Notes: generated by a model not told the origin, from the letters alone. DNA of 64,000 nucleotides from an uncultured bacterium (GCA_964590395.1 CAZPVT010000005.1:116387-180386); one strand, 5' to 3'; numbered from the stretch's first letter, positions 21,219-59,780 are shown. A program made the numbers and translations.

Positions 21219-22247
21219 ATGCCGAAAACATACACGGCAATTGAAAGTTGGATAGTCACCAATTTGCAGTTAACGCCGTCAAATAGTATTGAGCAGACCT
21301 ATGAAAGGCTGGAGCGACAGGGAGATAACCTACCGTTGCTTAATGCCCCGCAGGATTTAACTAATCCGGCGCATTTTATCGAGGAGGCGGTAATCTGGGA
21401 TTTTGCTTTACATCTGGCGGGGTGTGAGAAGGTGCTGGATGTTGGTTGTGGTGATGGCTGGCCCAGCCTGCGGCTTGCTAACCATTTTCCCATCTTGGTG
21501 GCGGTTGACGCTTCAGCCCGCCGTGTTGCTACTGCACAAGCCAATGCCCGGCGTTTAGGATTAAAGAATGTGAGTATTAAACAGATGTCAGCGCTGGAAA
21601 TGGATTTTCCCGATAGTTCGTTTGATGGTGTGGTCGCAGCGAGTGTTATTGAGCAGACAACCAATCCTTATCAGGCACTACGAGAGATTTTCCGGGTGCT
21701 TAAACCAGGGGGAAAATTGCGGCTGTTTTTTGAACCGGGCGATAACAGCACCAAGGGAGTTAGCGAGCGGGTTTTTATTTCGGAGACCGAGGATTCCCCC
21801 GGGTATCATTATGTCTTGAAACACAGTCGCCCTCCGTGGGAACGTAACTATCTGGTCAAATTTCCCCCAACTCCAGAGGTTAAAGATGCTTTCCGGCGGT
21901 TGCACAGTCTGATCGAAAGGCTGGGCTCAAATCCGAGACAGGCGCCAGAAATTGGCCTGAATTTTTTAACAGAAAACCAGACTCAAATCCTGGGGGTAAG
22001 CTGGTATGAAATAGAACTTTTTACCAGTGAGACGATGAAGGAGACTTTGGAAGAGGTTGGTTTTGAGGAAGTGGATGTCATTTATTCGGCTGGCACTTTT
22101 GCGCGCCGGTTTTTCCCTTTGATACAGGAGCAAGGGCTTTCCAGTATTCAACTGGCGGCTTGCTGTCGTGCTCTGGCAGAAATTAGTAAGGACATTTCAG
22201 CACCACATATTTCCGGCGAACCGATTGTTGCAGTAAGACCAAAATGA
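21219..22247 (+). CDS. Class I SAM-dependent methyltransferase
   Basis: Motif I VLDVGCGDGW. Post-I acidic residue. Motif VLKPGGKL. Confidence 0.7.
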   Translation: MPKTYTAIESWIVTNLQLTPSNSIEQTYERLERQGDNLPLLNAPQDLTNPAHFIEEAVIWDFALHLAGCEKVLDVGCGDGWPSLRLANHFPILVAVDASARRVATAQANARRLGLKNVSIKQMSALEMDFPDSSFDGVVAASVIEQTTNPYQALREIFRVLKPGGKLRLFFEPGDNSTKGVSERVFISETEDSPGYHYVLKHSRPPWERNYLVKFPPTPEVKDAFRRLHSLIERLGSNPRQAPEIGLNFLTENQTQILGVSWYEIELFTSETMKETLEEVGFEEVDVIYSAGTFARRFFPLIQEQGLSSIQLAACCRALAEISKDISAPHISGEPIVAVRPK

Positions 22248-22265
22248 TATAATAAGGAGGGGGTT

Positions 22266-23546
22266 ATGGGTAGTTATCTGGATAAAAGACGGAGGTGGAC
22301 GGTACTCGGTAAAATGGTCTTATTTCTGGCAGTGGTTCTTAGCTACTGTCAGCGCCCACCCGAAGGCAAGCGAATCGGTAGTAGTTATCAGGAACTGTCA
22401 AAGGCAGAGGTTTGGAAAGTGCCATCCCGTAGTCAGGCACAAATTATCGGTTTGCGACCCGGGGATTTAATAATCGCCTATAATGACGAGGTCATTAAAA
22501 ATTTTGGGGATTATCTTGCCGCAGAAAAGCATCTGGTGGGAACCCGGGAAGCAGTGAAGTTAACCGTTTTGCGCGATGAGCAGGAGATAAATCTTGAGAC
22601 AAAACCGGTACCGCTCAGCTTCATTCCCAGGACGAAAATGTACAGTGCCAGTCTTGCTAAAGCCTTGGATGATATCCTGCAACATTTCGGACAGCAAGGC
22701 TTTTATGACTGGCTGGCAGCGATGACTGGCGAGTCTTTTGCATTGACACTGCTGGACCAGGACTGTCAATCGTGGGGTGGAGATGGATTGGCGGATAACT
22801 ATCTTACCAATGTTGGCAAATTCACCGGGTTGTCTTTTCGGACGATCTATCAGAGTTCAGCAGGAGATACGGAGGAGCAATATAGGGCACGTGCGGCATT
22901 GGCACAGGGATTAGCAGAGAACAAATTTGTCCTCGTTTACGGTGGTTGGGAAAAGGTTTCAGGTAATGGTTGGGGGATTGTGGTGCGTTTTGATTCCAAA
23001 GATTCGGTTTTTTATGGCTATGCGATTGAGGATGGAGAGGAGCAGGCGTTGAAGAGGGGGCTTGTCCGTGCCTATGAGGTTAAATTTCGAGGCAAGGTTA
23101 ATATTGAGTTGCCTATATTGGTAACCACAGTATTGGAACAGGCGCTGGAGATGGGCCTGGCGGCCAGTGATTCTGGTTGGCACTCCGGGCTGGAGGCTTA
23201 CGATGTCATTCTGAAACAACTAGAGCGGTTCCCACTCTGTCCAGAAGGAGTTGATGTCAGTAATCTGTGCTTTTACAATATGGTCTGGCGTCTGATCAGC
23301 AAGAAAGAAAGTGCCAATCGGTTCCTTTATGAGATGAGAGAAGTTCTACCAGAGGGAGCAGAAATGTTTGAAGAGGTTATCGGCCGAAATCGGGCGATTA
23401 TTGGCCGACTGGAAGGGGTTGCGGCTGCTGGGGTAAGTTTCAATTCTTTAGATGAGCAAAGAAAGGTCGCCAAGGTTATTTACGAAATCCAGCAGATTGA
23501 AAACGATATTCTTGGGATTTATGAAGAGATAATCGGCGAGTTGTAA
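22266..23546 (+). CDS. Hypothetical protein with N-terminal TM/signal and a PDZ-like segment
   Basis: 426-aa ORF with an RBS. IIGLRPGDLIIAYNDEVI resembles a PDZ ligand-binding strand. Confidence 0.4.
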   Translation: MGSYLDKRRRWTVLGKMVLFLAVVLSYCQRPPEGKRIGSSYQELSKAEVWKVPSRSQAQIIGLRPGDLIIAYNDEVIKNFGDYLAAEKHLVGTREAVKLTVLRDEQEINLETKPVPLSFIPRTKMYSASLAKALDDILQHFGQQGFYDWLAAMTGESFALTLLDQDCQSWGGDGLADNYLTNVGKFTGLSFRTIYQSSAGDTEEQYRARAALAQGLAENKFVLVYGGWEKVSGNGWGIVVRFDSKDSVFYGYAIEDGEEQALKRGLVRAYEVKFRGKVNIELPILVTTVLEQALEMGLAASDSGWHSGLEAYDVILKQLERFPLCPEGVDVSNLCFYNMVWRLISKKESANRFLYEMREVLPEGAEMFEEVIGRNRAIIGRLEGVAAAGVSFNSLDEQRKVAKVIYEIQQIENDILGIYEEIIGEL

Positions 23547-23563
23547 TTTGTAGGCAAAAGGAC

Positions 23564-24367
23564 TTACCAGGTTTTCCCGGTCGAATCAAAAGTCCATTTC
23601 TGTTTTGAAATTTTTAAATAGAGTTCAATTCCCCGGCGCCGGCCAATCATTTTTAAGCCGAACGAAGAGCGGGGTTTGATGTCAATCGCGGTGCGGGCAA
23701 AGGAGCCGAATATCCGAATCTGCCCGAATTCCAAGTAATAAGGAACGGTTTTAGGTATCCGCTTACTGATATCGGTGTTTCCCGGTAGCCAGACCACCGG
23801 TCGGTTGCAGGAAATGGAGGTTGTTTCTCGGTTGATCATCGGTAGCAGTGCATACAAGGTCTCGGACAGGTCGAGTTTGTTAATCCTGAGTAGTTTTCTG
23901 GTTGTGGGTGAGAGAATATGTTCCAGCGCGACATCGGCGAGTTCGAACATTGAAAGTGTATCCCGGCTGCCGTACTGAAATGTTTGATCAAGGATATTGG
24001 AGAGCCAGACCAGTTGCCAGCCCGAGTCGGTAAAAAGCCAGTTCCCATAAATGTACTCGTAATCCTGTTTTCCTTGAAAGGTAACGTAGGTCGAAATATG
24101 TCCACCGCGTCCGCGGATCTCGATTAACCGGGTATTAATCTGGGCGATACGTCGATTTTTCACCCAAGCCTTCAGCGCGGAGTCGAAACGGAAAAACTCA
24201 ATTTCCTGCCGGAAAGCCGGGACAAACAGTTCATAAATTGTCCGGCTGTCGTTGTTTAAGATTGCCGAACTGACCTTTTGTGCCTTATGGTTGAGTTGGT
24301 ATTCGGTTTTAGGTTCGGCTGCGAGGATAATGGTATGGATAAGTAGGGGGGGGAAAATAAACTTCAC
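23564..24367 (-). CDS. Hypothetical secreted protein
   Basis: 267-aa ORF with an N-terminal signal-like segment. No recognisable motifs. Confidence 0.35.
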   Translation of the reverse strand: MKFIFPPLLIHTIILAAEPKTEYQLNHKAQKVSSAILNNDSRTIYELFVPAFRQEIEFFRFDSALKAWVKNRRIAQINTRLIEIRGRGGHISTYVTFQGKQDYEYIYGNWLFTDSGWQLVWLSNILDQTFQYGSRDTLSMFELADVALEHILSPTTRKLLRINKLDLSETLYALLPMINRETTSISCNRPVVWLPGNTDISKRIPKTVPYYLEFGQIRIFGSFARTAIDIKPRSSFGLKMIGRRRGIELYLKISKQKWTFDSTGKTW

Positions 24368-24370
24368 AAA

Positions 24371-24445
24371 CGGGCCCGACCAGATTTGAACTGGCGATCT
24401 TCGCCGTGACAGGGCGACGTGTTAACCATGCTACACTACGGGCCC
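24371..24445 (-). tRNA. tRNA-Asp (anticodon GTC)
   Basis: The reverse complement folds as a 75-nt cloverleaf: 7-bp acceptor GGGCCCG/CGGGCCC, anticodon loop CTGTCAC, T-loop GTTCAAATC. Confidence 0.85.
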
Positions 24446-24663
24446 TGATTAAATACTATAATTCTGGTGGCGGATGTCAAATCAGGACGTAATGGATGGG
24501 CGACAGTTGCCGCGACTTTTGACGGCATTCCATAGCCTGAGATAAGTTGTGGGGAAAATAAGAGGGTTATTCTATTTGTTTTCTGGTTAATATCCAGGGA
24601 GTTGTGCTATTATGTTGACCATATATTAAATTTAAAATTTATACAAGTGAAAGGAGGTACTTT

Positions 24664-26023
24664 ATGATTCGTTTGATAATGTTTTTTGCTTCTCTTGTTG
24701 CTGTTATCTTCGCCTAGGAGGTTATATGGTCGAGGCAGTAGGATTTCGGTCCGATGAGGCGTTAATCGGCATTACCAGTAAGGGGGGGATGATAATTGGC
24801 GTAGGGGGTTATGTTGATTCAGTTAATTACGATGCCGAGGGACTGATTGTAGTTTTTAATCAATCGGGTGAAACGCTGAACATCGGGACAATAGATCTGG
24901 GCGGTGATGAGCTGTTGATTGATGTCTGCCTGGACAATGAGTTGAACTGCTACATTGCCGGTAATGGCTCACCAGTTGGATTTAACCGTTGGCGACCTAA
25001 GGATTTTATCCGCAACCCATCATTTCAGGCACCCTACTGTATTATCGCCAACTTTGATTCGCTGGGTAATATGAAATGGGGAATAGTTGAATCGCCCTAT
25101 GTTGCTACAGGAGTTGCTGTTGACACTCGGGGCGACTGTTATTCTACCGGGGGCTATGGCGAAGGTTTTTATGATTTCTGCGTTGTGAAGATTCGGCCAT
25201 CCGGTGATACCGCATGGACCAGAATTTTCGATTATAGTTTGATGGATATACTATATCGGCCGGCTAATGACCGTGCGGGCAATCTGATTGCCCCGGGTTT
25301 TACATTTGACTTTTCGACGATGCGCGGAGTTGTTATGAAGGTATAGCCTGCGGGTGAAACGGGGTGGGCGAGGGTTGATAACTCAATGCCTTTGTGGCGT
25401 TTGTCAGTGCGGATGTGGACGAAATGGAGAGAATCTTTGTTACCGGTTTTTACCGGGGACACAGTTAACATTGATTTACCGGTGATCGGGCTGGACAGTT
25501 TTGGAAACGAGCTCTGGGGTCAGAGTTATGATTTCTCCTATGACGACGAGGGTTGGGTATTGTCAGCGCTCAGGACGGCTACATCTATGTTACCGGCTAT
25601 AATAGTGATGGGATGCGGCGTTCTTAAAACTTCTGGCTGATGACGGTAGTTTGGTCTGGGCTGAGCGGTATGACTTTGGTGGCTACGAGTACTTTCAGGA
25701 TGTAATGGTGGGTGAGGATGGTAATCCAATCGCTGGCGGTTTTACTGACTACTCAAGCGCTACCCCTTATGACCTGCTTCTCACCAAATTTGTCCCCAGC
25801 ATAGGGATTACCCAGTTAGAAAAATTTCGGGGATATGGGAAGAGAATTGTTGGATTCAAAACGGGGAACTTTGTTTAATGCTTACCTCAGGGGAAACTAC
25901 GATTTAGAGATATTTGATCTTTCGGGAAGGGGTGTAGCGAGATTTTACCGGCAGTTTTTAGTCAGGGGCAGAATCGATTACATCTCGGTAAGGTTGCCAG
26001 TAGTATTTATATTGTCCCGCTAA
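24664..26023 (+). pseudogene. Decayed gene for an SBBP beta-propeller-repeat protein with a T9SS C-terminal sorting domain. It shows in-frame TAG codons and at least 3 frameshifts.
   Basis: RBS + MIRLIMFFASLVAVIFA signal peptide ends at TAG (24715). The body continues in another frame from 24726. There is an in-frame TAG at 25344-25346. Frame shifts occur near 25550 and 25640. Repeated xGxxxWxxxYDF units continue across the breaks. The tail has a T9SS-CTD-like YDLEIFDLSGRGV segment. Confidence 0.5.
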
Positions 26024-26183
26024 CCGAGCCGAGTGGCAGAATAAACACTCAAAAGGCAGTGATGGTAAAGTGATTATTGGCGACCGGAAGTAACATAGGG
26101 AGTTCTAGCCAATATTAGCGATAATTTATACATTTGACTTTTGGAAAAGTTGGGATAAATTAATGAAGGCAGTTCTCTATTTG

Positions 26184-26271
26184 GGAGGGCTAGCCTAATC
26201 TGGTAAGGCAGCAGACTTGAAATCTGCCGATCCGGCGACGGGTCTTGCGGGTTCGAATCCTGCGCCCTCCG
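26184..26271 (+). tRNA. tRNA-Ser (anticodon TGA)
   Basis: 7-bp acceptor GGAGGGC/GCCCTCC + discriminator G. Anticodon loop CTTGAAA. Long variable arm. T-loop TTCGAAT. Confidence 0.8.
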
Positions 26272-26334
26272 TTTTAAAAACCGGTTTTGGATTGATTTTT
26301 TGTATTATAGATGTTTTTGTTTATAAAATAAAAA

Positions 26335-26423
26335 GGAGAGGTGGCCGAGAGGCTGAAGGCAACCGCTTGCTAAGCGGTTATACCCCTAACCGGGTATCAA
26401 GGGTTCGAATCCCTTCCTCTCCG
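26335..26423 (+). tRNA. tRNA-Ser (anticodon GCT)
   Basis: Acceptor GGAGAGG/CCTCTCC + G. Anticodon loop TTGCTAA. Long variable arm. T-loop TTCGAAT. Confidence 0.8.
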
Positions 26424-26453
26424 CTGGTAATTAATTCTGGCTATTAACCGCCA

Positions 26454-28034
26454 ATGGGCGATAAAACCGTCCGTGTGAGGATTGCCCCTTCCCCAACCGG
26501 TGCTTTGCATCTGGGTTTAGCAAGGACCGCTCTTTATAATTACCTGTTTGCACGGAGAAATAAAGGTATTTTTATTCTGCGGATTGATGATACCGATGAA
26601 AATCGCAATCAGCCTGAAATGCTGAAACCAATTCTTGCTGGTCTGCGTTGGTTAGGGCTTAACTGGGATGAGGGGCCGCTGGTCGGCGGTCCTTATGAGC
26701 CATATTTTCAGTCTCAACGCAAGGAGATATATCAGGCAGCAGTTAGCAAACTTTTGGAAGTCGGTGCTGCTTATAAGGACTACGCTACACCGGAAGAGGT
26801 GTCGGCGGAGCGGGAGCAGGCAAGGAGAGAAGGAAAAACTTTTCGTTACAGCCGGCGGTGGTGCGCAGAAACCACAGCCGATTGTGCCCGATTCGAAGCC
26901 CAGGGCAGAAAACCGGTGATCCGCTTGAAGATGCCGATGGAGGGTAAGATCGTTATTAACGATTTAATTAGAGGTAGGGTTGAATTTGATCTGAGTTTGG
27001 AGCAGGATCATGTAATTCAACGTCAGGATGGGAGTTTTCTTTATCATTTAACCAGCGCGGTCGACGACGGGGAGATGGGTATTACACACATCATCCGGGC
27101 TGAAGAGCACCTTTCCAACACACCGCGCCAGATATTTATACTCCAAAACTTGGGGTATAGTTTACCGGAATTTGCTCATCTTCCCTATGTTGCAGAACCA
27201 GGGAGTAAAAATAAACTGAGTAAACGGAAATTAAAAGAGTACATAAAGAAAAAGGATTTTGCCGAACTCTTGGCAAGGGGGGGAAAGATCGCCCGCCGGC
27301 TTAACTGGCAGTTGTCTCCGGAGATTTTTAATCCGGTGGTAATCGATTTCTATCAGCGGACCGGTTTTTTGCCTGAGGCGTTGATTAACTATCTGGCGCT
27401 GCTTGGCTGGTCTTATGACGACCGTACCGAATTTTTTTCGCTGGCAGAACTTACTCAGGTATTTTCGCTGGATAAGGTGGTTCGTTCACCGGCAAGTTTT
27501 GACCCGCAAAAACTTATTGCCTTTCAGGTGCATTATTTGATGGAATTACCGGTAGAAAAGCGAACAGAACTGGTGCTCCCTTATCTACTTCAGGCCGGAG
27601 TTATTACCTCGCCGGTGGAACTTTCGGTAAAAGAAATGGTCAAAAAAATAGCCCAAGCGGCCGGTGATCGAATCAAAATTGCCGGTGATATACTCGATTA
27701 TAAGTATTTCTTTGTTCCGGATGAGCAACTAAACTATGATGAGAAGGCGGTCAAGCGCTGGCTTGCTGATAGTCGGCAAAAGCAGATTCTCAGTGCGGTA
27801 CGGGAGACCCTTGCTCAAATCGACTCTTTTGAGGTGGACAGGTTGCATACCGAGCTGGAGTTATTCATTAAACAGCAGGGCGTCAAAGGTATGGAGTTGA
27901 GCCAGATTTTGCGTGTGGCGGTTACAGGTCGTGATTATGGATTTGGTATCAATGAGGTGTTGGCGATATTAGGTAAGAACAGAGTAATTAACCGGATTGA
28001 CCGGATTCTGTCCAAAGCGGTTCTCCCATTTTGA
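26454..28034 (+). CDS. gltX: Glutamyl-tRNA synthetase
   Basis: Class I HIGH-type motif (SPTGALHLG). KLSKRK (KMSKS-type) motif. 526 aa with a C-terminal anticodon-binding extension. Confidence 0.85.
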   Translation: MGDKTVRVRIAPSPTGALHLGLARTALYNYLFARRNKGIFILRIDDTDENRNQPEMLKPILAGLRWLGLNWDEGPLVGGPYEPYFQSQRKEIYQAAVSKLLEVGAAYKDYATPEEVSAEREQARREGKTFRYSRRWCAETTADCARFEAQGRKPVIRLKMPMEGKIVINDLIRGRVEFDLSLEQDHVIQRQDGSFLYHLTSAVDDGEMGITHIIRAEEHLSNTPRQIFILQNLGYSLPEFAHLPYVAEPGSKNKLSKRKLKEYIKKKDFAELLARGGKIARRLNWQLSPEIFNPVVIDFYQRTGFLPEALINYLALLGWSYDDRTEFFSLAELTQVFSLDKVVRSPASFDPQKLIAFQVHYLMELPVEKRTELVLPYLLQAGVITSPVELSVKEMVKKIAQAAGDRIKIAGDILDYKYFFVPDEQLNYDEKAVKRWLADSRQKQILSAVRETLAQIDSFEVDRLHTELELFIKQQGVKGMELSQILRVAVTGRDYGFGINEVLAILGKNRVINRIDRILSKAVLPF

Positions 28035-28070
28035 CATCAGAGGAGCAGTTTGATATGATAAATAATTTCT

Positions 28071-29786
28071 ATGAGTTGGGATAACGAGAAAAAGTCGGGT
28101 CCTGATTTCATCAGGCGCATAATTAACGAGGACTTGGCGTCGGGTAGATTTCAGCCACCGATTGTTACCCGTTTTCCACCCGAACCTAATGGCTATCTCC
28201 ACATTGGTCATGCCAAGTCGATCTGTCTGAACTTCGGGATTGCTCAGGAGTATGGTGGCAGGTGTCATCTGCGTTTCGATGACACCAATCCAGAAAAGGA
28301 AGAGGAGGAATTTGTCCGGTCAATAATTGAGGATGTCCGATGGCTAGGATTCGACTGGAGGGATTATTTGTATTACGCTTCGGATTACTATGAGCAGTTG
28401 TATCAGTGGGCGGTAGAGTTGATTAAAAACGGTAAGGCTTATGTGTGTGATCTTTCTCCAGAACAGGTGCGAGAGTATCGGGGAACATTGACCGAGCCGG
28501 GTCGAGAAAGTCCGTATCGGAATCGCTCGGTGGAGGAAAATCTGAAGTTGTTTGATCAGATGCGCAGAGGTGAATTCCCTGATGGTGCCAAAACCCTGCG
28601 TGCCAAGATTGATATGGCGTCCCCTAATCTGAATATGCGCGATCCGGTGATGTACCGAATTATGCGTGTTCCCCATCACCGCACAGGCGACAAATGGTGC
28701 ATCTATCCGACATACGACTGGGCACACGGTCAGTCCGATGCCATTGAAGGTGTCACCCATTCAATCTGCACGCTGGAGTTTGAAGACCACCGGCCGCTCT
28801 ATGACTGGTTTATTGAACAACTTGGAATTCACCACCCACGTCAAGTGGAGTTTGCGCGGTTGAATCTGACCTACACCGTACTAAGCAAGCGTCGGTTGAT
28901 GGAGTTGGTACAAGGGGGTTATGTTTCAGGTTGGGATGATCCACGCATGCCGACGATCGCTGGATTACGGCGGCGTGGGTATACCCCGGAGTCAATAAGA
29001 AACTTCTGTGAGATAATCGGAGTCGCCAAAGCAGAGACAGTTGTTTCGATCGACCTTTTGGAGCACTGTGTGCGAGAAGATCTGAACCGACGGGCAGAAC
29101 GTCGGATGGCGGTATTGAAGCCATTAAAGGTGGTGATTGAAAACTACCCCGAAGGGCAGGTTGAGGAGCTGGTGGCACTCAACAATCCCGAAGATTCCAA
29201 TGCCGGCACCCGACTTGTACCTTTTTCCCGGGAGATTTACATTGAACAAGATGATTTCCGTGAGGAGCCACCGCCCAAATACTACCGTTTAGCTCCGGGA
29301 AGAGAAGTACGGTTGCGTTATGCCTATTTCGTCAAATGTGTCGGGGTGACTAAAGATGAGCAGGGGCGTATTAAGGAACTCCGCTGTACCTATGATCCCC
29401 AGACTCGCGGCGGTAACGCGCCGGATAAAGGGAGAGCTAAGGCAACCATTCACTGGGTATCTGTGCCCCACGCTGTTAATGCCGAAGTTCGGCTTTACGA
29501 TCGGTTATTTACTATGCCGGACCCGGATGAAGTGCTACCGGGGAAGGACTGGAGGGCAAATATTAACCCCGATTCACTGGTGGTATTAGCGGAGTGTAAA
29601 TTAGAACCGAGTTTTAATGATGTCAAGCCCGGTGAGATATTTCAGTTTGAACGGCTGGGCTATTTCTGCGCGGATTTGAAAGACTGTCAGCCAGGCCGGC
29701 TGGTTTTCAATCGTACCGTTACGCTCAAGGATACCTGGGTGAAGATCGAACAGAAAATGAAAGAAACACGAAAGGAGGAAAGGTGA
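28071..29786 (+). CDS. glnS: Glutaminyl-tRNA synthetase
   Basis: N-terminal [23 protein letters not shown] motif. VLSKR motif. GlnRS-specific C-terminal beta-barrel anticodon-binding domains. 571 aa. Confidence 0.85.
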
Positions 29787-30391
29787 GTTTTCTTTGGCAA
29801 CTGGAAAAAGGAAAAGGCGTGCAATTTTTAGCCGGAGTCGCGGCTAAGGTAGCAAAACAAGGCGATGGTAAATGGAAATACCGTGTCCAAATAACGGGTA
29901 AACCTGACAAGTATGTCCTTTTAGGACTGCAATTCGGTAGCCACATCCTTGCCCGTTTTCCCAAAAATGAATCGAGGGGGTATGAACTGGCAACGACACT
30001 TGAGCGGATGGTGAACCTAATCGTCAACGAGGGGATCTGGCCTAATTCGGACCTGATTCGCTATGCGGATGCATCCGAGGTAATGAAATTGAGTGGTCCC
30101 GCAGACGAAATTGGCGGTGAGATGCTCGAAGCCGGGCTTATCATCGCCCCCGGTAGTGAGGCACCAACCTTGATTTTTGCGGAGCCATTTAAGGTCCCTG
30201 ATGAAGCACTGATGTATTCGGTAATTGCGGTATGGCAAACGCTGATTGGTGTTCTGGATAACACTGGTGTGGAGAAGTTTGATCGGGCACTGCGTTATTT
30301 TAATTCTTATTTAGATGAAGGGCTCAACTGTTCGGATTCGATGATTGCTGCCAATCTTGCCAACCGCGCATACCGTGCGGCTCTTGAGTAG
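29783..30391 (+). CDS. Hypothetical protein
   Basis: 202-aa ORF. GTG start overlaps the glnS stop (GTGA). No motifs recognised. Confidence 0.35.
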
Positions 30392-46335: not shown

Positions 46336-49163
46336 GAAGGTGTGCATTTTTTATTATCGCTTTGCTTTTAATCGCGGGGAGCGCATTTGCGGGCGTTGTC
46401 GGTCGGATTAAAGGCAAGGTGATCGATAAGAAGACCAGAGAGCCCTTAGTTGGTGCCAATGTGATTGTGGTCGGCACCGAACTGGGTGCAGCGACCGATG
46501 CGAACGGTGAATATGAGATTAACAATGTCCCGCCGGGCAGGTATAAACTTACCGCTTCCTACATCAGTTATAACGAGATGAGCGTTACTGATGTGCTGGT
46601 AGTTCAGGACCAGGTGGCGATTATTGACTTTCAGTTAAGCCCGACAGTGATTGAGGTTGGTCCGGTTGAGGTGAAGGCAGAACGGCCATTGGTGAACCGG
46701 GGAACGGTGACGGTGGAGCGGGTGATCACTGATGAGGAGTTCAAGCGGTTGCCGGTTGTGCAACTGTCTGAACTGGTCGGTTTGCAGGCGGGCGTTACGC
46801 AAACCACGGGTCGGGGCTGGACCCACATCCGTGGCGGTAGATACGATGATGTCGCCTATCTGGTGGACGGTGTCGCGGCGCAGGATGCAGTGGTAGGAAC
46901 GCTGTGGTCAAGCCCGAAGCCCACGAGTGATGCGCTGGCATCGGTGGTGGTGGTGACCGGTGGTTTTGATGCGGAGTATGGCTCAGCGATGTCCGGTATT
47001 ATCAAGGCAGTGACCAAAGAGGGTGGTTCACGAACCAGCGGGAAGATCGGGTATCTGACTGATGAGGTTTTCCCGAAACCGGACCTGAATTTCGGTTATA
47101 ACCGGGTTACCTTTTCGCTGGGCGGACCCACATTCTATAACCGCCTGCGTTATTTTATCTCCACCGAATACTTCAAGACCGATGATGACCGAAACTGCCT
47201 GTATAAGGTTAATTCGCCCAGAGGTGAGTATGCGGCAGAAGGTAAATTGACACTTCAGTTTCCGAAGGAGTTTTTCCTGACCCGGGAGGGTTTGAAGTTA
47301 ACCGTCGACGGCTATCACTCCAATTACCAGTGGCAGGCATGGGCGAACAGTTACAAGTTTTATCAAAAGGCACTTTATGCCAATAGGGTACGTAGTTATA
47401 AAGGTAATGTGACGCTGAACCATATGCTTTCGCCGACCACGGTTTATGAGGCGAAGTTGGGCGTTTTCTCCACCTCGTTAATCAGGACGGTGCGGAATTT
47501 TGATGCTGAGGCAGCAGATACCACCGGATTCTGGGGTTTTCTGCGCAAGAACGGAATCTGGGACCGATATTTCTTCCGGGCTGAGGACTGGGTGTTTAAC
47601 AATCCGGAAGGGCTATCGAAGAAAGAGGCGGTTTTGCAGTTGTGGCGTTCTTACTGGCTATCCCCGAGCGGGGACACCGTTTATGCCCATAAGGCGCAGA
47701 AGAAGAATTTTATGACCGCGTATGCTTTGATCGATAATCCCTATGGTGTGGCTGGTCTGTTTGTTACCGAAGGTGATAACCGGACCTGGCATTACCGGCA
47801 AACCGATCATATGCTTTTCAAGTTTGATCTGACCAAGACCATCTCCAAGGTACACGAGATCAAGACTGGTGTTGATATCACTCAGTATTCGGTTTCAATG
47901 TATGACAACTCCCTACCATGGGACCAGAATCCGTTCTGGGATGCGTTTAATTATAAACCGCTGGTGGCTGCTGCTTATATCCAGGACCGGGCAGATTTTG
48001 AGGACCTGGTGGTGCGTGCTGGTGTTCGGTTTGATTATCTTGATGCAAAGGCAAAGGTGCGGGTTTTTCCTGAGTCGCTCGGTTCAACACCAGAAATTGC
48101 CGACAGTTTTATACCGGTGCCGCCAAAGTACCGTCTTTCACCTCGACTGGGTATCTCTTATCCGATTACTGAGCGGATTAAGTTCCGCTTTTCTTATGGC
48201 CATTTCTTCAAAAATCCGGTTTTTGCCAATCTGTATGAGTACGGTGAGCGACCAGCAGCCGAATTGCGGGGGCGGGGTAATGTCATTGTGGGTAATCCGG
48301 ATATGAGCGCGGAAAAGACCATCGCCTATGAGTTAGGGTTTGATGCCCAGTTAAGTGATGTATTTGCCTTTGACCTGACTGCATTTTACAAGGATGTGTT
48401 TGACCTTTCCGGTGTGCGTGTAGTTTCCGCACTGCCTCAGCCCTACACGATGTATTACAATGTCGAGTATGCCCGTATTCAGGGTTTTGAAGCAACGATG
48501 ACCAAGGCGCTTGCCAATTACTGGAATACCCAATTGGGTTACACCTTCCAGGTCGCGAAAGGCACCGCCTCCACTGCGACTGACCAGTATCAGCGGGAAA
48601 AACCACTGCAGATTGATTTCTATCTGGATCAAGATCAGCGCCATTCACTGCACGGCAGTTTAGGATTTTACTTTCCGTCGGACTTTGGATTTACTCCACT
48701 GCGCGACTTCAATGCCTCCGCGGTTGCCAATTATGGCTCTGGTATGCCCTACACACCGACCGACATTAGAGGTAACCGAACCGGTGCGGAAAATTCGGCA
48801 AGAATGCCTTCAAGTTTCACGATGGATATGCGGTTTGGCAAGGACATCAGACTGGGTGGTCTTAACCTAGTGCTTTCCTGCGATATTACCAACCTTCTGA
48901 ATGCCCGGGTGGCAACCAATGTTTATGCTACGACCGGTAAGCCGGATAATGATGGGCGGGTATTCACACCACAGGAGTTTGTGCCTGGTATCAGGTTCGG
49001 GGATCTGTATTACCATCCGGCACGGGATTTCAATCATGATGGTTATCTGACGCGGATGGAGATGTATCAGTCCTATATTCGGGCGCGCGAGGATTATGTG
49101 AAGGCACCGACCTATTACGGTTCGTCAAGGAAAGTTCGTTTTGGCATCAGCCTGTCTTTCTAA
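46332..49163 (+). CDS. TonB-dependent-receptor-type outer-membrane protein with an N-terminal CarbopepD_reg domain
   Basis: Signal peptide. GVVGRIKGKVIDKKTREPLVGANV..GEYEINNVPPGRYKL. Plug. Large beta-barrel ending in F. Confidence 0.7.
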   Translation: MRRCAFFIIALLLIAGSAFAGVVGRIKGKVIDKKTREPLVGANVIVVGTELGAATDANGEYEINNVPPGRYKLTASYISYNEMSVTDVLVVQDQVAIIDFQLSPTVIEVGPVEVKAERPLVNRGTVTVERVITDEEFKRLPVVQLSELVGLQAGVTQTTGRGWTHIRGGRYDDVAYLVDGVAAQDAVVGTLWSSPKPTSDALASVVVVTGGFDAEYGSAMSGIIKAVTKEGGSRTSGKIGYLTDEVFPKPDLNFGYNRVTFSLGGPTFYNRLRYFISTEYFKTDDDRNCLYKVNSPRGEYAAEGKLTLQFPKEFFLTREGLKLTVDGYHSNYQWQAWANSYKFYQKALYANRVRSYKGNVTLNHMLSPTTVYEAKLGVFSTSLIRTVRNFDAEAADTTGFWGFLRKNGIWDRYFFRAEDWVFNNPEGLSKKEAVLQLWRSYWLSPSGDTVYAHKAQKKNFMTAYALIDNPYGVAGLFVTEGDNRTWHYRQTDHMLFKFDLTKTISKVHEIKTGVDITQYSVSMYDNSLPWDQNPFWDAFNYKPLVAAAYIQDRADFEDLVVRAGVRFDYLDAKAKVRVFPESLGSTPEIADSFIPVPPKYRLSPRLGISYPITERIKFRFSYGHFFKNPVFANLYEYGERPAAELRGRGNVIVGNPDMSAEKTIAYELGFDAQLSDVFAFDLTAFYKDVFDLSGVRVVSALPQPYTMYYNVEYARIQGFEATMTKALANYWNTQLGYTFQVAKGTASTATDQYQREKPLQIDFYLDQDQRHSLHGSLGFYFPSDFGFTPLRDFNASAVANYGSGMPYTPTDIRGNRTGAENSARMPSSFTMDMRFGKDIRLGGLNLVLSCDITNLLNARVATNVYATTGKPDNDGRVFTPQEFVPGIRFGDLYYHPARDFNHDGYLTRMEMYQSYIRAREDYVKAPTYYGSSRKVRFGISLSF

Positions 49164-49176
49164 GGGGGAGGATAAG

Positions 49177-52122
49177 GTGAATAGAGCGCTTAAAATTTCT
49201 TTAGTTATCATTATTCTACTGGCGGTCTTTGCGCCAGTGTTTGCCAAAACCGCCACGCCCGTTTCCCGGGGAAAGCGGATTTATGATATGAAGTGGCTGA
49301 ATATCAACCGCTGGAAATGTCCGTTTTACAACGATGGCAGATACGGGATTGATGTTACGGTTGGCACTGGTCAGGCAGGAGGCAGCTGGCCCCAGCCTTT
49401 GCATAACTGCTATATCTTTGGTGCGGGGATGTGGTTTGGCTCGTTGAAGCCGCGTGAGGATGGTAAGACCGATACTCTGGTCTCTTTCGGATACAACCCG
49501 AATTCCGGTGGCACCGAGATGACGCCGACGACAGTTGCCCGCGCACCAGAAGGTGCGGGAAGTTCGGATGACCGGATTTTTGTTTATCCTAATGACTGGC
49601 CACCAAGCCCCAGGGACCGCTGGACTACCGGAAATTCTAAGATCGACAGCATGCTGATTCCTTATGAGGCTTTCTCTTTACAGGATATGTGGTGTGTCTA
49701 TTCGGATGCGGCACCGGAAAATCATATCGCACCAGGCAAACCGCAGAATATTGATGTTTACCAGGTGATTTACGCCTGGAACTATCCATCGAATCAGGAT
49801 ATCTTCTTTATCATCTATAATGTGCGCAATTCTGGGGACGATACCCTGAAGCGATGCTTTATCGGCGCGGTGAATGATCCGGATATCGGCAATGCCCCAG
49901 ATGATATGGTCGGGTTTATTCTCAAAGACTACATTCCGGGTGCCGATACAGTGGAAAATGTTGGGTATGCGGGTGATGTTGATAATCAGGAAACCCCAGG
50001 AAGCACCTGGGAGTCAGGAACACCGGGCGTTTTCGCATATAAGTTTCTGGACAGTCCGAAACGGGATTCAATCACTGCGAGCGGTGATACAGTGAAGGTG
50101 CCATTGGGGATGACCGCATTTAAAAAGTTCACAATTGACATTGACCCGGTTACTGACCCGGCTCAGTATCTGACGATGGCTGGTTATGATTATCGAACTG
50201 GTGTTTATTCGGCTTATGATTCGGTTGATGTAACTGCTGCGGATAAACGTTTTATTATGTGCTCAGGACCATTTGATCTTGCCCCGGGGCAGGTTGAGCG
50301 GTTGGTAGTAGCAGCAATCGGTGCACCATTTGGTGGGCCAAATCAACCATGGGCAGACCGGCCAAAGGACTCGTTAGTTCATCTGGCGCGGGTCGCCAAT
50401 GCCGCGCAATTTATCTATAACCAGGGATGGCTCCTACCAGGACCACCGGTTGCACCGAATATAATACTTTTGCCAGGAGATAAACAGGTGCGGCTCGTCT
50501 GGGATGACCTGCCGCAAAGGACGCCAGACCGTTACTGGGAAAAGGTAGCGAGTCAGCCTGGTCCAGGATATGACCCGATGTATCGTGGTTATGACTTTCA
50601 GGGGTATGTTATCTATAAATCACGCGACGGTGCCAACTGGAAGATCATCGGTCAGTGTGATCTGGCTGACACTCTGCCCAAGTCAGGAACCGACACCCTC
50701 TGGCCATACAAAGTGGAGATATCCGAGAACAAACGGGATACAACTTACCTCTGGCCACTGGGTAGAGATGAGACCCAGCCGGACAGTCTCTGGGTCAGGA
50801 TGAATAATCGCGGGGTATACTATACACTGCTCGATAAAGATGTGATCAACGGTTTCACCTATTACTACTGTGTGACCGCGTACGACTGGAACTATATCAC
50901 TAAAACGAAGGACAGTCTCGGTAATCCGGTCACCTGGGATACTTTGATTCTGCGTTCGGGTATTGTTGCTAACTTCTTAACAACACCGAGATGGGAGCCG
51001 GTGAATTACATCTGGCCTGAGGTACGGGTTGTGCGGGTGGCGGGTGATTCGTTAAACAGTGCGTTAATCTGTTCCACAACGGTGACGGTACCTTTTAATG
51101 TTACGGGTGATGTTTATGAGATCAGGTTTTTAGGACCCGAGTGGAGTGGTTCTTTTGAAAAACCGATCTACTCCTACTATGCGGTGAACACCACTAAAAA
51201 TGAGTCACTGGTGATTGATACTACCTCCTTTACCTACGAGATCGCATCACCGGCAAAGAAGTTGAGTTTTGATCTACCGATAATTAACGGCATCGCGACC
51301 AAGATGGTGCTGGGTATGAAGATTCCGGATGTACCGTTTACCGCGGTAAGCGTGGAACAGGGTAATTATCCGGCTGATTCCTTAAAGATTGGCGTGGCAC
51401 CGCGTCAGGCTTACTGGGCATTCCGGGGTTCGGATTACCGGATTGAGTGGCAGAACCGGAATGGCTATCTCACGGCCAGGGTTTACGATGTTACTAACGG
51501 CGGAATTGAAGTGCCATTCTCCAAGTTTACCAGTGCAGGAACTGGGCCACAGAATGCGAATGGCTGGTGCTTTGTGGACAGAGGTTTGCGCTCGCCCACC
51601 GATACCTTAAAAGGCACAATCGCTCACATTTACATCTGCGGCGGTTATTTAGGTTTCAAACAGTCCGGGGACAGTTTGCAGAGCTTAATCAACTCAATTC
51701 AGGACGGCAATGTCTGGTTGCTCACCGGTTACCGGTCAGGTGGTGCGGCACCATCCTATAATATCCTGAGACTGGTGCCGACCGTGGGATATGCGGATAC
51801 CAGTACCAAGCAGAAGTTGCAGGTTAAGGTGGTGCCTAATCCTTACATCGTGTTTAACCCGTGGGAAAAGACAACTGAGGAGCGGAAGGTCAAGTTCACC
51901 CATCTGCCGAATCGTTGCAAGATCCGGATCTTCACTACTTCTGGAGACCTGGTTAAGGTAATTGAGCATAACGATTCCAAGCGACAGCCAATGGATCTGG
52001 GTGGCACTGCGGACTGGGATCTGGTTAACGATTATCAACAGTTGATCGCGTCCGGAGTTTATATCTTCCATGTGGAATCACCGGTTGGTGAGTTCACTGG
52101 GAAGTTGATGGTCATCCATTAA
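49177..52122 (+). CDS. Large secreted protein with a T9SS C-terminal sorting domain (cargo of unknown function)
   Basis: GTG start with a GGGGGAGG RBS. Signal peptide. The C-terminal ~90 aa (VVPNPYIVFNP...KIRIFTTSGDLV...ASGVYIFHV..GKLMVIH) match the Por-secretion CTD pattern. Confidence 0.6.
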   Translation: MNRALKISLVIIILLAVFAPVFAKTATPVSRGKRIYDMKWLNINRWKCPFYNDGRYGIDVTVGTGQAGGSWPQPLHNCYIFGAGMWFGSLKPREDGKTDTLVSFGYNPNSGGTEMTPTTVARAPEGAGSSDDRIFVYPNDWPPSPRDRWTTGNSKIDSMLIPYEAFSLQDMWCVYSDAAPENHIAPGKPQNIDVYQVIYAWNYPSNQDIFFIIYNVRNSGDDTLKRCFIGAVNDPDIGNAPDDMVGFILKDYIPGADTVENVGYAGDVDNQETPGSTWESGTPGVFAYKFLDSPKRDSITASGDTVKVPLGMTAFKKFTIDIDPVTDPAQYLTMAGYDYRTGVYSAYDSVDVTAADKRFIMCSGPFDLAPGQVERLVVAAIGAPFGGPNQPWADRPKDSLVHLARVANAAQFIYNQGWLLPGPPVAPNIILLPGDKQVRLVWDDLPQRTPDRYWEKVASQPGPGYDPMYRGYDFQGYVIYKSRDGANWKIIGQCDLADTLPKSGTDTLWPYKVEISENKRDTTYLWPLGRDETQPDSLWVRMNNRGVYYTLLDKDVINGFTYYYCVTAYDWNYITKTKDSLGNPVTWDTLILRSGIVANFLTTPRWEPVNYIWPEVRVVRVAGDSLNSALICSTTVTVPFNVTGDVYEIRFLGPEWSGSFEKPIYSYYAVNTTKNESLVIDTTSFTYEIASPAKKLSFDLPIINGIATKMVLGMKIPDVPFTAVSVEQGNYPADSLKIGVAPRQAYWAFRGSDYRIEWQNRNGYLTARVYDVTNGGIEVPFSKFTSAGTGPQNANGWCFVDRGLRSPTDTLKGTIAHIYICGGYLGFKQSGDSLQSLINSIQDGNVWLLTGYRSGGAAPSYNILRLVPTVGYADTSTKQKLQVKVVPNPYIVFNPWEKTTEERKVKFTHLPNRCKIRIFTTSGDLVKVIEHNDSKRQPMDLGGTADWDLVNDYQQLIASGVYIFHVESPVGEFTGKLMVIH

Positions 52123-52133
52123 AGGAGGCAAGA

Positions 52134-53171
52134 ATGAAAATAGCGTTGAAAATCTTATTGCTCGGTTTGGTGGTTTGTTCCTTTTCCTATGGTGCGTTCA
52201 GCAAGGTGGCGACAACCGGGGCGAATTTTCTGAAAATCGGCGTGGGCAGGGCGTCAGGAATGGGCGATGCGTTTACCGCGCTGGCTGATGATGCCTCGGC
52301 TGCCTATTTTAACCCGGCAGGTCTGGCGAATGTCAATCGGCAGGCACAGGTCAATCATGCGAAATGGTTTGCGGATATCAACCACGACTTCATGGTGGTT
52401 GTGTTACCGGTAACCAATTTCGGCACGGTCGCATTTACTGCTACTGCGCTGACGATGGGTGACATTGAGGTAACAACGGTTGATGACCCGAAGACGCCGG
52501 CGCGCGAGGATGAGGGAACCGGGCTGAAGATCGGTGCTAATGATCTGGCATTCGGTATCAGTTACGCCCGGATTATCACGGACAAGTTGTCATTCGGGCT
52601 TTCGGTCAAGGCGGTTCAACAGACCATCTGGGATATGGGGGCTTCTGCAGTGGGTTTTGATATGGGGCTTTTCTACAACACCGGGTTCAAGTCGCTAAGG
52701 CTGGGCGCTGCTGTCACCAACTACGGAACTCAACTGGCTTTTTCCGGGCCGCATCTGGATTACAACTTTAACTGGTCCGATTCCGGACCGAAGCAACTGC
52801 AGGGCTCTTACAAAACCACACCCTCACCACTACCGACCGCATTCCGTTTCGGGGTGGCGATGGATTTGGTGAACACCGGCGCCAATCGGCTTACCACCGC
52901 AGTTGACATTGTGCATCCTTCAGACATCAATGAGACGGTCAATATCGGCCTGGAATACGGTTTAGCCAATATGTTCTTTTTGCGCGGGGGCTATATCCTG
53001 AATGTTGACCAGAACTACCACCAGAAACTCGGCGATCTCACCGGACTCTGTGCCGGACTGGGCATAAAAGGCAAACCGACTCCTGTGCTGGAGATAGGGC
53101 TTGATTATGCGTTCCGGTATTATCAATACTTGAAACCCACACACCGGTTGATGTTGACCGTTGGCTTTTAA
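52134..53171 (+). CDS. PorV/PorQ-family (FadL-like) outer-membrane beta-barrel protein
   Basis: Signal peptide, then GANFLKIGVGRASGMGDAFTALADDASAAYFNPAGLA, the hallmark N-terminal motif of PorV/FadL-like barrels. Ends in aromatic GF. Flanked by two CTD-bearing genes. Confidence 0.55.
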   Translation: MKIALKILLLGLVVCSFSYGAFSKVATTGANFLKIGVGRASGMGDAFTALADDASAAYFNPAGLANVNRQAQVNHAKWFADINHDFMVVVLPVTNFGTVAFTATALTMGDIEVTTVDDPKTPAREDEGTGLKIGANDLAFGISYARIITDKLSFGLSVKAVQQTIWDMGASAVGFDMGLFYNTGFKSLRLGAAVTNYGTQLAFSGPHLDYNFNWSDSGPKQLQGSYKTTPSPLPTAFRFGVAMDLVNTGANRLTTAVDIVHPSDINETVNIGLEYGLANMFFLRGGYILNVDQNYHQKLGDLTGLCAGLGIKGKPTPVLEIGLDYAFRYYQYLKPTHRLMLTVGF

Positions 53172-55335
53172 GGACAAGGGGTTCGCTCTTAGAGCGGTTA
53201 AACTGACAGGGGGATGGTTAACCATCCCCCTGTTGCTATTATCTGCCAGGGCTATAGGTGCTAAATGGACTGTGGGTATTTACATCGGCGCGGATAACGG
53301 AATGAGCGAACAGGCTTATGTTGACATTGCGGAGATGATGAAAGTTGGCTCAAGTAGCGAGGTCAATATCGTGGTGCAGGTTGATAATGCCAGCCGGGAC
53401 ACCAATCCGAACTGCCGGCGTTATTTAATCCTTAAAGATCAGCGGGAACTGCTTGCAGACCTTGGTGAACTGGATATGGCAGACACCGCGGTGCTTGCGG
53501 ATTTCATTGCGTTTCTGGGTAGAAATTTTCCTGCCCGTAACTACTTTCTTATCATCTGGGACCACGGCAACGGCTGGCGTGCAGGTTATGGTCCACAGCG
53601 GGCGGTGGTGATTGATGAGTCCCATAGTCATATGATGGGGGTGGCAGGTGGCGAGTTAAACCGGGCACTGGCAAACGGAGTTAAACGGCTGGGCAAGAAA
53701 CTGAAGATTTTAGGTTTTGATGCCTGTTTGATGGGGTGCATTGAGGTGGCAACTGAGGTGATGGACTACTGTGAATACCTCCTTGCCTCGGAGGCGATGG
53801 TGGAGTGGAATGGGTTACCCTATGATGCCATATTCAGAAGGTTAACCACCCAGCCTGACATACCGGTTGAACAGTTACTTTCCGGTATCTGTGAGGACTA
53901 TGTTAACGCATATCCGGACCGGGCGGTCTGTCTTTCGGCGATCAGCACCGCACAACTGAAACAGGTGATAAAAACCCTCTCTGTTGTGCTTAAAGACAGT
54001 ATTGGTTCAGATGATAGACGTGTTCAAACTGCCCGTCTTGGTGTGCAGACATTTCCGCAGGATCTGGTTAGCCAGCCCAAAGTCAACGATGAGATGATCG
54101 ATCTTATTCATTTCTGGCAGCTGGTAGGGGGTAATGGCACCGAGAAACTCTGTCAGGCTCTTGAAGGGTTGGTTGTGGCAAATGCGGTGGGGGGGGCGGA
54201 TTTTAACAATGCGCAGGGTCTTGCGGTCTGGTTTCCTTTTCGGTACCTTGGTTTCAAATCCAAGGCAAAGGAGTATCAGCAACTGGTTTTCTCAGACAGT
54301 GTGCCCTGGCTTAGTTTCTTAAACAACTATTTCGGTTTAGACGATGCCAAACCTGAAACACCCCGGATTATCAAACACCAGACCGGAAACCGGGGAGATG
54401 TCCGGCTCTGGTGGCACCGGGTTAAGGACTGGTCACCGGTTACCTACCATCTTTATCAGGCGACCGCGCCCGCATCGATTTTACAGGACCACTGCGACAG
54501 TTTTGCCTCTTGGCAGTCACAGGGCTGGGCCGTTTCAACCCGGTATAGCCGTTCACCCGGGAGTTCGTTTTTCTCGGGTTCAGCGAGCAACTTAACTCAC
54601 CTCCTGACACTAAAATCCGGAGTATCACTGCCTGCAGGTGGTTTGCTTGCCTTTTATGCCTATTACTCAACCCAGGAGACCGAAGACTCCTTGGGTAACA
54701 TTACCCGTGATGCCTGCTATATTGAAACCTCAACTGATCGCCAAAACTGGCAGATACTGGACTCAATTTACGGTTCTGGTGAATCCTGGCAGGAGTTTTC
54801 CTATCTTCTGGTTCCAGCCGAGAATGTTTATATCCGGTTCAGATACACCACCGACCAGACCATAAACCGGCTCGGTGTTTTTATTGACGACATCCGGATT
54901 GAACGGTTTTTGACCCTGCGCAAGGCGCTGGTTACCACCGACACCACATCCTACCTCTTCAACCTTGCCCGGGAGACCACCGGTTATTACTTTTTCCTTA
55001 TGGCGCAGGATGCATCTGGCAACTACTCCAATCTCAGCTCCTATTACCCGGTAAAGATCAAAACCCTTGCCGAACCCTACACCCGACCCGCGCCATTTTC
55101 CGGGCAATGTCAACTTATCCTGGACTTTCCGGCAGGTGAAACTCCGGATGTCTACATCTACACATTGAGCGGCGCCCTGGTCAAAAAATTCTCAAAGGTC
55201 ACTAACCGGATGATTGACTGGGACGGCAAAAACGAATATGGTAGAGACCTGGCTGATGGGGTCTATTTAGTTTTAGTCCGGGGTAAAAACTTCAAAAAAA
55301 TCGGCAAAATCGCCCGGGTGGGGGTAAAAGGATAA
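53161..55335 (+). CDS. Clostripain-family (C11) cysteine peptidase with a T9SS C-terminal sorting domain
   Basis: IYIGADNG..., IIWDHGNGW (His) and GFDACLMG (Cys) catalytic-dyad motifs. C-terminal CTD (DVYIYTLSGALV...DGVYLVLV...KIGKIARV). Confidence 0.7.
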   Translation: MAFKDKGFALRAVKLTGGWLTIPLLLLSARAIGAKWTVGIYIGADNGMSEQAYVDIAEMMKVGSSSEVNIVVQVDNASRDTNPNCRRYLILKDQRELLADLGELDMADTAVLADFIAFLGRNFPARNYFLIIWDHGNGWRAGYGPQRAVVIDESHSHMMGVAGGELNRALANGVKRLGKKLKILGFDACLMGCIEVATEVMDYCEYLLASEAMVEWNGLPYDAIFRRLTTQPDIPVEQLLSGICEDYVNAYPDRAVCLSAISTAQLKQVIKTLSVVLKDSIGSDDRRVQTARLGVQTFPQDLVSQPKVNDEMIDLIHFWQLVGGNGTEKLCQALEGLVVANAVGGADFNNAQGLAVWFPFRYLGFKSKAKEYQQLVFSDSVPWLSFLNNYFGLDDAKPETPRIIKHQTGNRGDVRLWWHRVKDWSPVTYHLYQATAPASILQDHCDSFASWQSQGWAVSTRYSRSPGSSFFSGSASNLTHLLTLKSGVSLPAGGLLAFYAYYSTQETEDSLGNITRDACYIETSTDRQNWQILDSIYGSGESWQEFSYLLVPAENVYIRFRYTTDQTINRLGVFIDDIRIERFLTLRKALVTTDTTSYLFNLARETTGYYFFLMAQDASGNYSNLSSYYPVKIKTLAEPYTRPAPFSGQCQLILDFPAGETPDVYIYTLSGALVKKFSKVTNRMIDWDGKNEYGRDLADGVYLVLVRGKNFKKIGKIARVGVKG

Positions 55336-55406
55336 AGGCCTCTAATTCCTCGGGAAGTCTGCTGAATAATCACAATCAACTACTTAGTTGTGTAACTAAT
55401 ATATAA

Positions 55407-56672: not shown

Positions 56673-56673
56673 A

Positions 56674-58005: not shown

Positions 58006-58094
58006 TTATAAACTTTCCCCGATTGAGCATATATAGATTAATTTGAGATAAACAGTTGATTCGACGAGAGAGTAAGATCAATAACATTATCTAA

Positions 58095-58215
58095 AATTTA
58101 TAGTTGCACCCCTCCAAGTCAACTTTTTACCGGCGAGTGTTGCGGTTCCGGCACTGCCAGGCGCCGGTATCGGGGATAGGTTTTTTGAAACAGACCAGAG
58201 GGCAATTTGGGCATA
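58095..58215. repeat. Copy 2 of a triplicated palindrome + promoter-like element
   Basis: CCTCCAAGTCAA...CCGGCActgccaggcGCCGG-TATCGGGGATAGGTTTTTTGAAA. Shares the 5' part and core with 62995-63125. ~90 nt upstream of the MTase start. Confidence 0.6.
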
Positions 58216-58734
58216 TGAACTGGCAATGATATTTTCCACATCATTAGTCCCGCTTAGTCCTTTTTTCTCTCTGCTCTTTTATACCATTAATTATCCAGAT
58301 GGTTAGAGCGATAATTATGCAAATAATTACGAAAGCCACAACCAGATAGTAAACTGTAAGTGTTATTAATGGCAGTGTCGCTTAAACTAATATTGCCACC
58401 GGCAGAAGAATAAGTATCGCTAATACTTTAGCAACCAAACGAACTTGATGCTTGTTTCGAAACTTCCATAGTCCAATGGCAGTAAAAATACTAATGATAG
58501 CAATACTTAATAGGCTAATTAACATCCAGGCCTTTATACCTTCGCCATATATAAGCGAGATAAACAGGAGATATAGTGGTATTATTGTCTCCAGTATTAA
58601 AAGCCTAATTATATTACGAATTGATGCCAGCTCTTTCTTAATATTATATACCGCCTTTTATGCTATTTCCGATAACGTCTTGCGGATAAAAGAATTTGCC
58701 GAAGGTAATGTTGGGCGAAGCCTCTTATCCGCTG

Positions 58735-59664: not shown

Positions 59665-59780
59665 ATTACCTCCTTGTTTTAGAGCGATTTTTTATCTTTT
59701 GTGTGCGGTCAAGGTCCAATAAGGACATCGATAAAATTCATAACAATAACAATAAATCTGTCGAGGTCAAGTTTTTTCTT

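Follow-up and report, generated by a model that had tools for sequence, protein, structure and literature searches.

The DNA analysed here, referred to as the window, is a 64,000-nt stretch from an uncultured bacterium, and it contains a 1.7-kb interval bounded on the left by tRNA-Asp(GTC) (24371-24445, minus strand) and on the right by tRNA-Ser(TGA) (26184-26271, plus strand). The interval holds only one ORF of more than 100 codons (24726-25346, 206 aa), and the disrupted gene to which this ORF belongs extends over 24664-26073, a length of 1,410 nt compared with 1,413 nt for the intact genes of its family. All features of this gene lie on the plus strand. A Shine-Dalgarno-like sequence (AAAGGAGG, 24650-24657), read directly in the sequence, is still intact 6 nt 5' of an ATG that opens a 17-codon putative signal peptide, MIRLIMFFASLVAVIFA (24664-24714). 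The signal peptide was judged by eye from a basic residue and a hydrophobic core, then A followed by Q, and it aligns with the N-termini of the homologues, for example MPRLSAILFCLFAVSLA followed by QDT. The initial annotation had described a ribosome-binding site, a signal-peptide ORF that stops at a TAG after 17 codons (24715-24717) and a repeat-rich body that resumes in a different frame, and all of these are seen by direct reading. A three-frame translation shows that the propeller motifs jump among all three frames. The longest undisturbed stretch, which covers propeller blades 1-4 (24753-25343), is part of the 206-aa ORF and shares 59-64% identity with intact homologues. The remnant of a T9SS type A C-terminal sorting domain (...YDLEIFDLSGRGVARFY... 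/ ...LGKVASSIYIVPLTEPSGRINTQKAVMVK) lies at 25850-26070, and the C-terminal tail ends with ...SSIYIVPLTEPSGRINTQKAVMVK, followed by a TGA at 26071-26073. Both the sequence reading and the homologue alignment identify this TGA as the ancestral stop and the true 3' end, 50 nt beyond the end previously set at position 26023, which is just the stop of an out-of-frame ORF.

An Rfam scan of 23500-27000 found no family beyond the tRNAs and no hidden RNA gene. Sub-threshold matches to RF04351 (Plastid-psbl-rps4 3'UTR) occur on the minus strand at 26370-26423 and 26195-26271, antisense to two tRNA-Ser genes; the model almost certainly resembles the complement of a tRNA, and the matches do not represent a real element. 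In addition, a promoter-like TTGACT-16-TAAATT sequence is present at 26134-26161, near tRNA-Ser(TGA).

A stitched conceptual translation of the locus (475 aa) was used as the query for homologue searches. It matches seven intact proteins (P0001-P0007) of 469-478 aa with E values of 3e-171 to 1e-123, 47-58% identity and 97-100% coverage, and the best match has an E value of 3e-171, 58% identity and 100% coverage. When aligned, the frame-corrected copy is 46-61% identical to the seven proteins, one of which carries the NCBI name 'T9SS type A sorting domain-containing protein [candidate division WOR-3 bacterium]'. Neither the stitched translation nor its fragments show a Pfam match at E<=1, PF06739 included, and the stitched translation obtains 13.5 bits with TIGR04183 (E 0.052), below the cutoff of 23. 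Because no Pfam or NCBIfam model is matched above threshold by the copy itself, the family was assigned through the intact homologues. The SBBP model PF06739 is above threshold in six of the seven (26.6 bits against 20.5 for P0001), Por_Secre_tail (PF18962) is also found in six, and TIGR04183 exceeds its cutoff in four of the five homologues scanned (P0001, P0002, P0006, and P0007, 24-31 bits). The SBBP and CTD labels given to the locus earlier are correct for the intact homologues, and on the decayed copy they stay under threshold.

The beta-propeller fold was checked on the homologue P0001 only. Its AlphaFold2 model, built from the seven-sequence alignment (pLDDT 80.4, pTM 0.72), contains an N-terminal helix (residues 2-14), about 28 beta strands and a C-terminal beta sandwich. 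The best PDB matches of the model in Foldseek are to the CylK propeller (E 1e-19, TM 0.66-0.67, 20% identity), followed by many other propellers. Based on the domain matches of the homologues and the P0001 model, the ancestral protein is predicted to have had an SBBP-type propeller between a signal peptide and a T9SS-type sorting domain. Among SBBP proteins (PF06739), the cyanobacterial Friedel-Crafts alkylase CylK (PDB 7FH6, 7ROO) thus provides a propeller on which the homologue model superposes, but there is no evidence of CylK-like catalysis, and the window copy itself no longer matches PF06739. The homologues score 33-56 bits with the model for Leptospira LipL53-type SBBP lipoproteins (NF047494), far under its 400-bit cutoff.

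Lesions were mapped by frameshift-aware dynamic programming of the DNA against five intact homologues, a comparison that the initial annotation had proposed, and the same core result was obtained with all five proteins. Relative to the intact homologues, the locus carries three in-frame TAG codons and about eight 1-nt frameshifts (seven deletions and one insertion). The first TAG (24715-24717) stands at a position that is CAG (Gln) in all intact homologues examined, indicating a C>T transition. The second (24739-24741) falls on the Tyr/Ile of the first W-x-R-x-[YI]-D motif, which is encoded by TAT in the deep-branching P0006 and P0007. The third (25344-25346) corresponds to TCA (Ser) in most homologues and to AAA (Lys) or Thr in others, and the change from TCA to TAG takes at least two steps. 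This codon had been described as the second in-frame TAG, splitting otherwise continuous propeller motifs; it does lie between well-aligned motifs, but it is the third, the one at 24739 having been missed.

The first frameshift is a 1-nt deletion at 24751-24752 that cuts a Ser codon to 2 nt and is placed at the same site with all five homologues. The second, also a 1-nt deletion, is located to the range 25386-25393 and not to an exact base, and the third is a 1-nt insertion in a T5 run at 25447-25451. This T5 run is the longest homopolymer at any of the frameshifts; several indels coincide with short runs of T or G. At 25554-25555, a fourth 1-nt change, a deletion, reduces the Leu codon of the conserved DDEGLGIV motif to TG, and a fifth frameshift, again a 1-nt deletion, lies at 25613-25623 after the G run of ...GATGGG. 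The alignment paths vary by homologue at about 25825-25870, where either two 1-nt deletions (frameshifts 6 and 7, at ~25840 and ~25869) or a single +1 event would account for the change in frame; two deletions are favoured because a short frame-0 segment, CWIQNGEL, matches FWLVRNGEL of the homologues. The eighth frameshift is a 1-nt deletion at 25955-25968, within the C-terminal sorting domain. About seven frame changes are therefore found by the frameshift-aware alignment after the TAG at 25344, instead of the two claimed at first.

Of the 140 columns at which all seven intact homologues agree, 23 are changed in the frame-corrected copy. Among these changes are C273T, C328A, G265E, G458S, R195I, R422N, D312A, and D360G; two conserved Cys residues are replaced, as are several Gly, Asp, and Arg residues. 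When each intact member is left out in turn, the shallow members deviate at 1.4-4.7% of the invariant columns, and the deepest members, P0006 and P0007, deviate at 16-21%. The excess in the window copy thus appears moderate; it is compatible with relaxed constraint and would not be decisive alone. Compared with the uncharacterised WOR-3 family of ~470-aa proteins represented by P0001-P0007, the window copy is colinear over its full length and has the same domain order, but it differs in its three nonsense codons, its about eight frameshifts, these 23 changed positions and a neighbourhood unlike that of every intact member examined.

A further protein of the family, P0008 (264 aa), is a fragment of another decayed copy, at ~5520-6940 of L010 (ENA ERZ4756919 NODE_144, a 177-kb contig). 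The copy is identical in Logan ERR6564811. It is 68% identical to P0005, and its locus and that of the intact P0006 are syntenic, with Rrf2, a 231-aa protein, and Metallophos genes upstream and CsgG-like genes downstream. The start codon of the L010 copy is lost, in-frame stops are present at 5593, 5986, and 6618 (all TAG), and there are three frameshifts; none of the lesions is shared with the window copy. The L010 copy deviates at 21 of 143 invariant columns, compared with 1.4-2.7% for its closest intact relatives. This locus is an independent second pseudogene in another WOR-3 lineage and shows that the family is dispensable in some lineages. In WOR-3 hot-spring bacteria, point decay has thus removed an accessory T9SS-type surface propeller gene on at least two independent occasions.

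A scan of the genome contigs found only two intact members of the family. The scan of metagenome contigs with the window's own 197-aa stretch gave no match, and the scan with the family alignment recovered only known members and distant SBBP proteins, so that no intact relative closer than ~60-61% identity was found in these contig scans. One metagenome contig (IMG Ga0129301_1003589, L013) carries an intact P0002-type member that is 59% identical to the frame-corrected window copy, and it comes from the same metagenome sample as one of the contigs that carry the decayed copy (IMG Ga0129301_1000371, L001); the intact member could belong to another organism or be a paralogue in the same genome.

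The genes that flank the locus are housekeeping genes and are all intact (ribonucleotide reductase, methyltransferase, GluRS, GlnRS, and an AcrB-type pump). By GluRS, the nearest relatives are WOR-3 MAGs with only 70-77% identity. Four loci of the closest relatives (L026-L029, GluRS 72-77% identical) were compared with window positions 26184-30391, and the order tRNA-Ser(TGA), tRNA-Ser(GCT), GluRS, GlnRS, ~203-aa ORF, and AcrB-type pump is kept in them, synteny beginning at tRNA-Ser(TGA). Upstream of the tRNAs, the three relatives that extend so far have other genes (a PKD protein, a GreA-like protein, Sua5, and Wzi), and no copy or remnant of the propeller gene is found upstream of tRNA-Ser in the relatives' loci. 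The synteny comparison also reveals no conserved neighbourhood for the family, the intact members being located in other surroundings. The differing upstream genes of the relatives and the varied neighbourhoods of the family members place the decayed copy at a synteny breakpoint beside tRNA genes, and the family acts like a gene that is accessory, mobile or subject to frequent rearrangement.

We conclude with high confidence that 24664-26073 is a genuine and fairly old pseudogene, derived from a gene for a secreted seven-bladed SBBP propeller with a sorting domain in a WOR-3 hot-spring bacterium, which was inactivated and then drifted neutrally. Decay of a surface or cargo protein gene had been put forward at the outset, and it is borne out by eleven lesions relative to intact homologues, by their recurrence in three other assemblies (described below) and by the intact neighbouring genes. 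The ancestor would have been a secreted protein of ~470 aa with a Sec signal peptide, a seven-bladed SBBP-type propeller and a T9SS type A CTD. After inactivation of the gene in this WOR-3 lineage, neutral drift would have added three nonsense substitutions, all to TAG and one of them clearly a transition (CAG>TAG), together with about eight 1-bp indels that show the preference for deletions usual in bacteria. No large deletion has occurred, and the full 1.41 kb is still colinear with the intact homologues. Translation from the retained RBS and ATG would end after 17 codons, so that no propeller could be made. The about eight indels and three stops in 1.4 kb suggest a neutral divergence of roughly 5-10% since inactivation; because no intact copy closer than ~60% identity was found, the time of inactivation and dN/dS are not estimable.

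Bacterial pseudogenes ordinarily decay through nonsense mutations and 1-bp indels, with a bias towards deletions. The window copy resembles ordinary bacterial pseudogenes in its multiple point lesions, its seven deletions against one insertion, some of them in short homopolymers, its intact flanking genes and its signs of relaxed constraint. It differs from them in the absence of a large deletion despite about 11 lesions and in the identity of its nonsense codons, all of which are TAG. These two differences also count against an old pseudogene: a locus that keeps its full length, RBS and start and has only 1-bp indels is somewhat tidy, and TAG accounts for all three premature stops against an expected share of 0.38-0.50. 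The pseudogene is real but ordinary. Gene callers report three or four separate 'hypothetical proteins' here (206, 84, 75, and 62 aa) where one pseudogene should be annotated, and such fragments stand in public protein databases, so the value of the result lies mostly in annotation hygiene. The locus also indicates that a dead stretch of ~1.4 kb can survive without shortening beside tRNA genes at a rearrangement breakpoint.

It is very unlikely that the locus is a partly functional remnant, in which a fragment such as the 206-aa ORF at 24726-25346 (blades 1-4) would still be expressed or useful, or that it is a phase-variable contingency locus. The retention of the promoter-proximal region, the RBS, the ATG and the full length without large deletions would fit such a remnant, as would the prediction of the 206-aa ORF by gene callers in every assembly. 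However, this ORF has neither a signal peptide nor a sorting domain, its propeller is incomplete, and the fragment has no Pfam hit. In addition, its ATG at 24726 has no evident RBS, the upstream RBS serving the 17-codon ORF. Phase variation was rejected: TRF detects no simple-sequence tract that would permit reversible switching, the longest run at a frameshift is T5, and eight shifts and three stops, eleven lesions in all, could not be reverted by slippage. 

The lesions are also present in other assemblies. The 206-aa fragment ORF occurs on seven contigs, three of which were retrieved and compared (L001, L002, and L003, from three other sample accessions). The Logan SRR5216256 sequence is 100% identical to the window over 24371-26229. 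The sequences from IMG 3300010284 and IMG 3300022548 have the same length as the window over 21726-28346 (6.6 kb) and differ from it by 3 SNPs and 1 SNP, respectively, and there are no indel differences among the compared assemblies. Of the three SNPs by which the IMG 3300010284 population differs from the window over the 6.6 kb, two (24959 and 25025) lie inside the pseudogene, which is consistent with relaxed constraint, with numbers too small to test. IMG 3300022548, an Illumina/SPAdes co-assembly, comes from the Cone Pool hot-spring mat, from which WOR-3 MAGs have been reported (PMC7490370). TRF found no tandem repeats in the region, and no dispersed repeats are present in 24400-26200, where short direct repeats are at chance level. 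Illumina/SPAdes data contain very few indel errors. None of the 38 other long ORFs of the window, among them ORFs of 991, 1077, 1030, 943, and 993 aa, is interrupted, and uninterrupted ORFs of at least 200 codons cover 90% of the rest of the window.

These results bear on the possibility, also raised by the initial annotation, that the gene is truly intact and that its lesions are consensus or assembly errors in a repetitive or strain-variable gene. The protein consists of repeated blades, metagenome assemblies are the source of the sequence, and two strain SNPs lie inside the gene, all of which could favour errors of this kind. However, the same indels and stops recur in three other assemblies from different sample accessions, one of them the Illumina/SPAdes co-assembly, the DNA lacks tandem or dispersed repeats in 24400-26200, and eleven errors in 1.4 kb would stand against zero in the 38 other long ORFs. 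Because the lesions are shared, the repeats are absent and the other ORFs are intact, assembly error was rejected as highly improbable.

The premature stops follow an unusual pattern. The 38 other long ORFs of the window end with TAA in 24 cases, TGA in 12, and TAG in 2, and none of them is split by a TAG, which answers, for the window, a count of TAG usage that had been proposed together with the suggestion of stop-codon readthrough. Based on the codon usage of intact genes, TAG is expected to make up 38-50% of single-nucleotide nonsense substitutions, and all six premature stops in the window copy and the L010 copy are TAG. Trinucleotide counts over all frames give 16 TAG in the pseudogene against about 12 predicted from the window average, and 1-7 in the intact homologues from other genomes. 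This TAG enrichment in stop usage, nonsense spectrum and trinucleotide counts is suggestive at best and was noticed post hoc. The all-TAG premature stops probably reflect codon bias (G-ending codons on a G-rich coding strand) together with chance. It is unlikely that the six of six TAG arose other than by chance, for example through a lineage-specific mutational bias on the G-rich coding strand of these thermophilic WOR-3 genomes, or, much less likely, through an amber-specific tolerance or suppression under which alleles with TAG would last until frameshifts build up; a milder version would be a repeated, selected loss of the propeller gene (e.g. as a phage receptor) in hot-spring WOR-3.

Almost no credence can be given to recoding, in which TAG would be read as an amino acid (by a suppressor tRNA, as pyrrolysine or after reassignment), with or without programmed frameshifting, and a full-length protein would be made: its appeal is that the three premature stops are all TAG, the rarest terminator of the window (2 of 38 genes), that the three in the L010 pseudogene are TAG as well, and that six of six has a p value of about 0.003-0.016 at an expected share of 0.38-0.50, calculated post hoc, but the eight frameshifts would remain, at sites without slippery or long homopolymer sequence, TAG ends two ordinary genes and splits no other long ORF of the window, none of the window's four tRNAs has a CUA anticodon, the first and second TAG replace a conserved CAG and a TAT as one-step nonsense mutations, and the 16 TAG trinucleotides stand against a window average of about 12 per 1.41 kb. 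Since TAG is a genuine, rare stop here and eight frameshifts remain, readthrough and reassignment were rejected. Programmed frameshifting and transcriptional slippage were likewise ruled out, since the lesions are too many and neither slippery sites nor long homopolymers are present. The locus has no bearing on open questions of the genetic code or recoding.

T9SS type A cargo proteins (TIGR04183/PF18962) are defined in Bacteroidota, and the intact homologues resemble them in having a signal peptide and a CTD above cutoff. A PorV/PorQ-family outer-membrane protein is also encoded in the same window, at 52134-53171 (NF033709, 197 bits against a cutoff of 90), so that the decay of the propeller gene is not obviously part of the loss of a whole secretion pathway. 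In contrast to such cargo, the host belongs to WOR-3 and not to Bacteroidota, T9SS secretion there is only putative, and the sorting domain of the window copy is frameshifted and below cutoff. A literature search for WOR-3 and T9SS found no paper. The PorV/PorQ-family gene is flanked by genes for a 993-aa protein (no Pfam match) and a C11 (clostripain-family) peptidase, within 49141-55335, and the C-termini of both neighbours show weak, sub-threshold similarity to T9SS CTDs or the PorZ tail. The region 49141-55335 is a possible secretion or cargo cluster of a WOR-3 genome.

Two compositional features were also observed in the window. A low-GC block at 55400-62000 (GC 0.34-0.37, compared with about 0.49 elsewhere) contains genes for an N6/N4 DNA methylase (56674-58005), a DUF7663 protein (58735-59664), and an AAA_14 ATPase (60089-61579), together with unannotated ORFs, and was probably acquired horizontally as a restriction-modification or defence island. 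GC skew of the plus strand is strongly positive (0.1-0.29) over 1-30000, across genes of both orientations, and is ~0 at 30-38 kb, a possible sign of a replication-strand effect or of a switch in skew near 30 kb.
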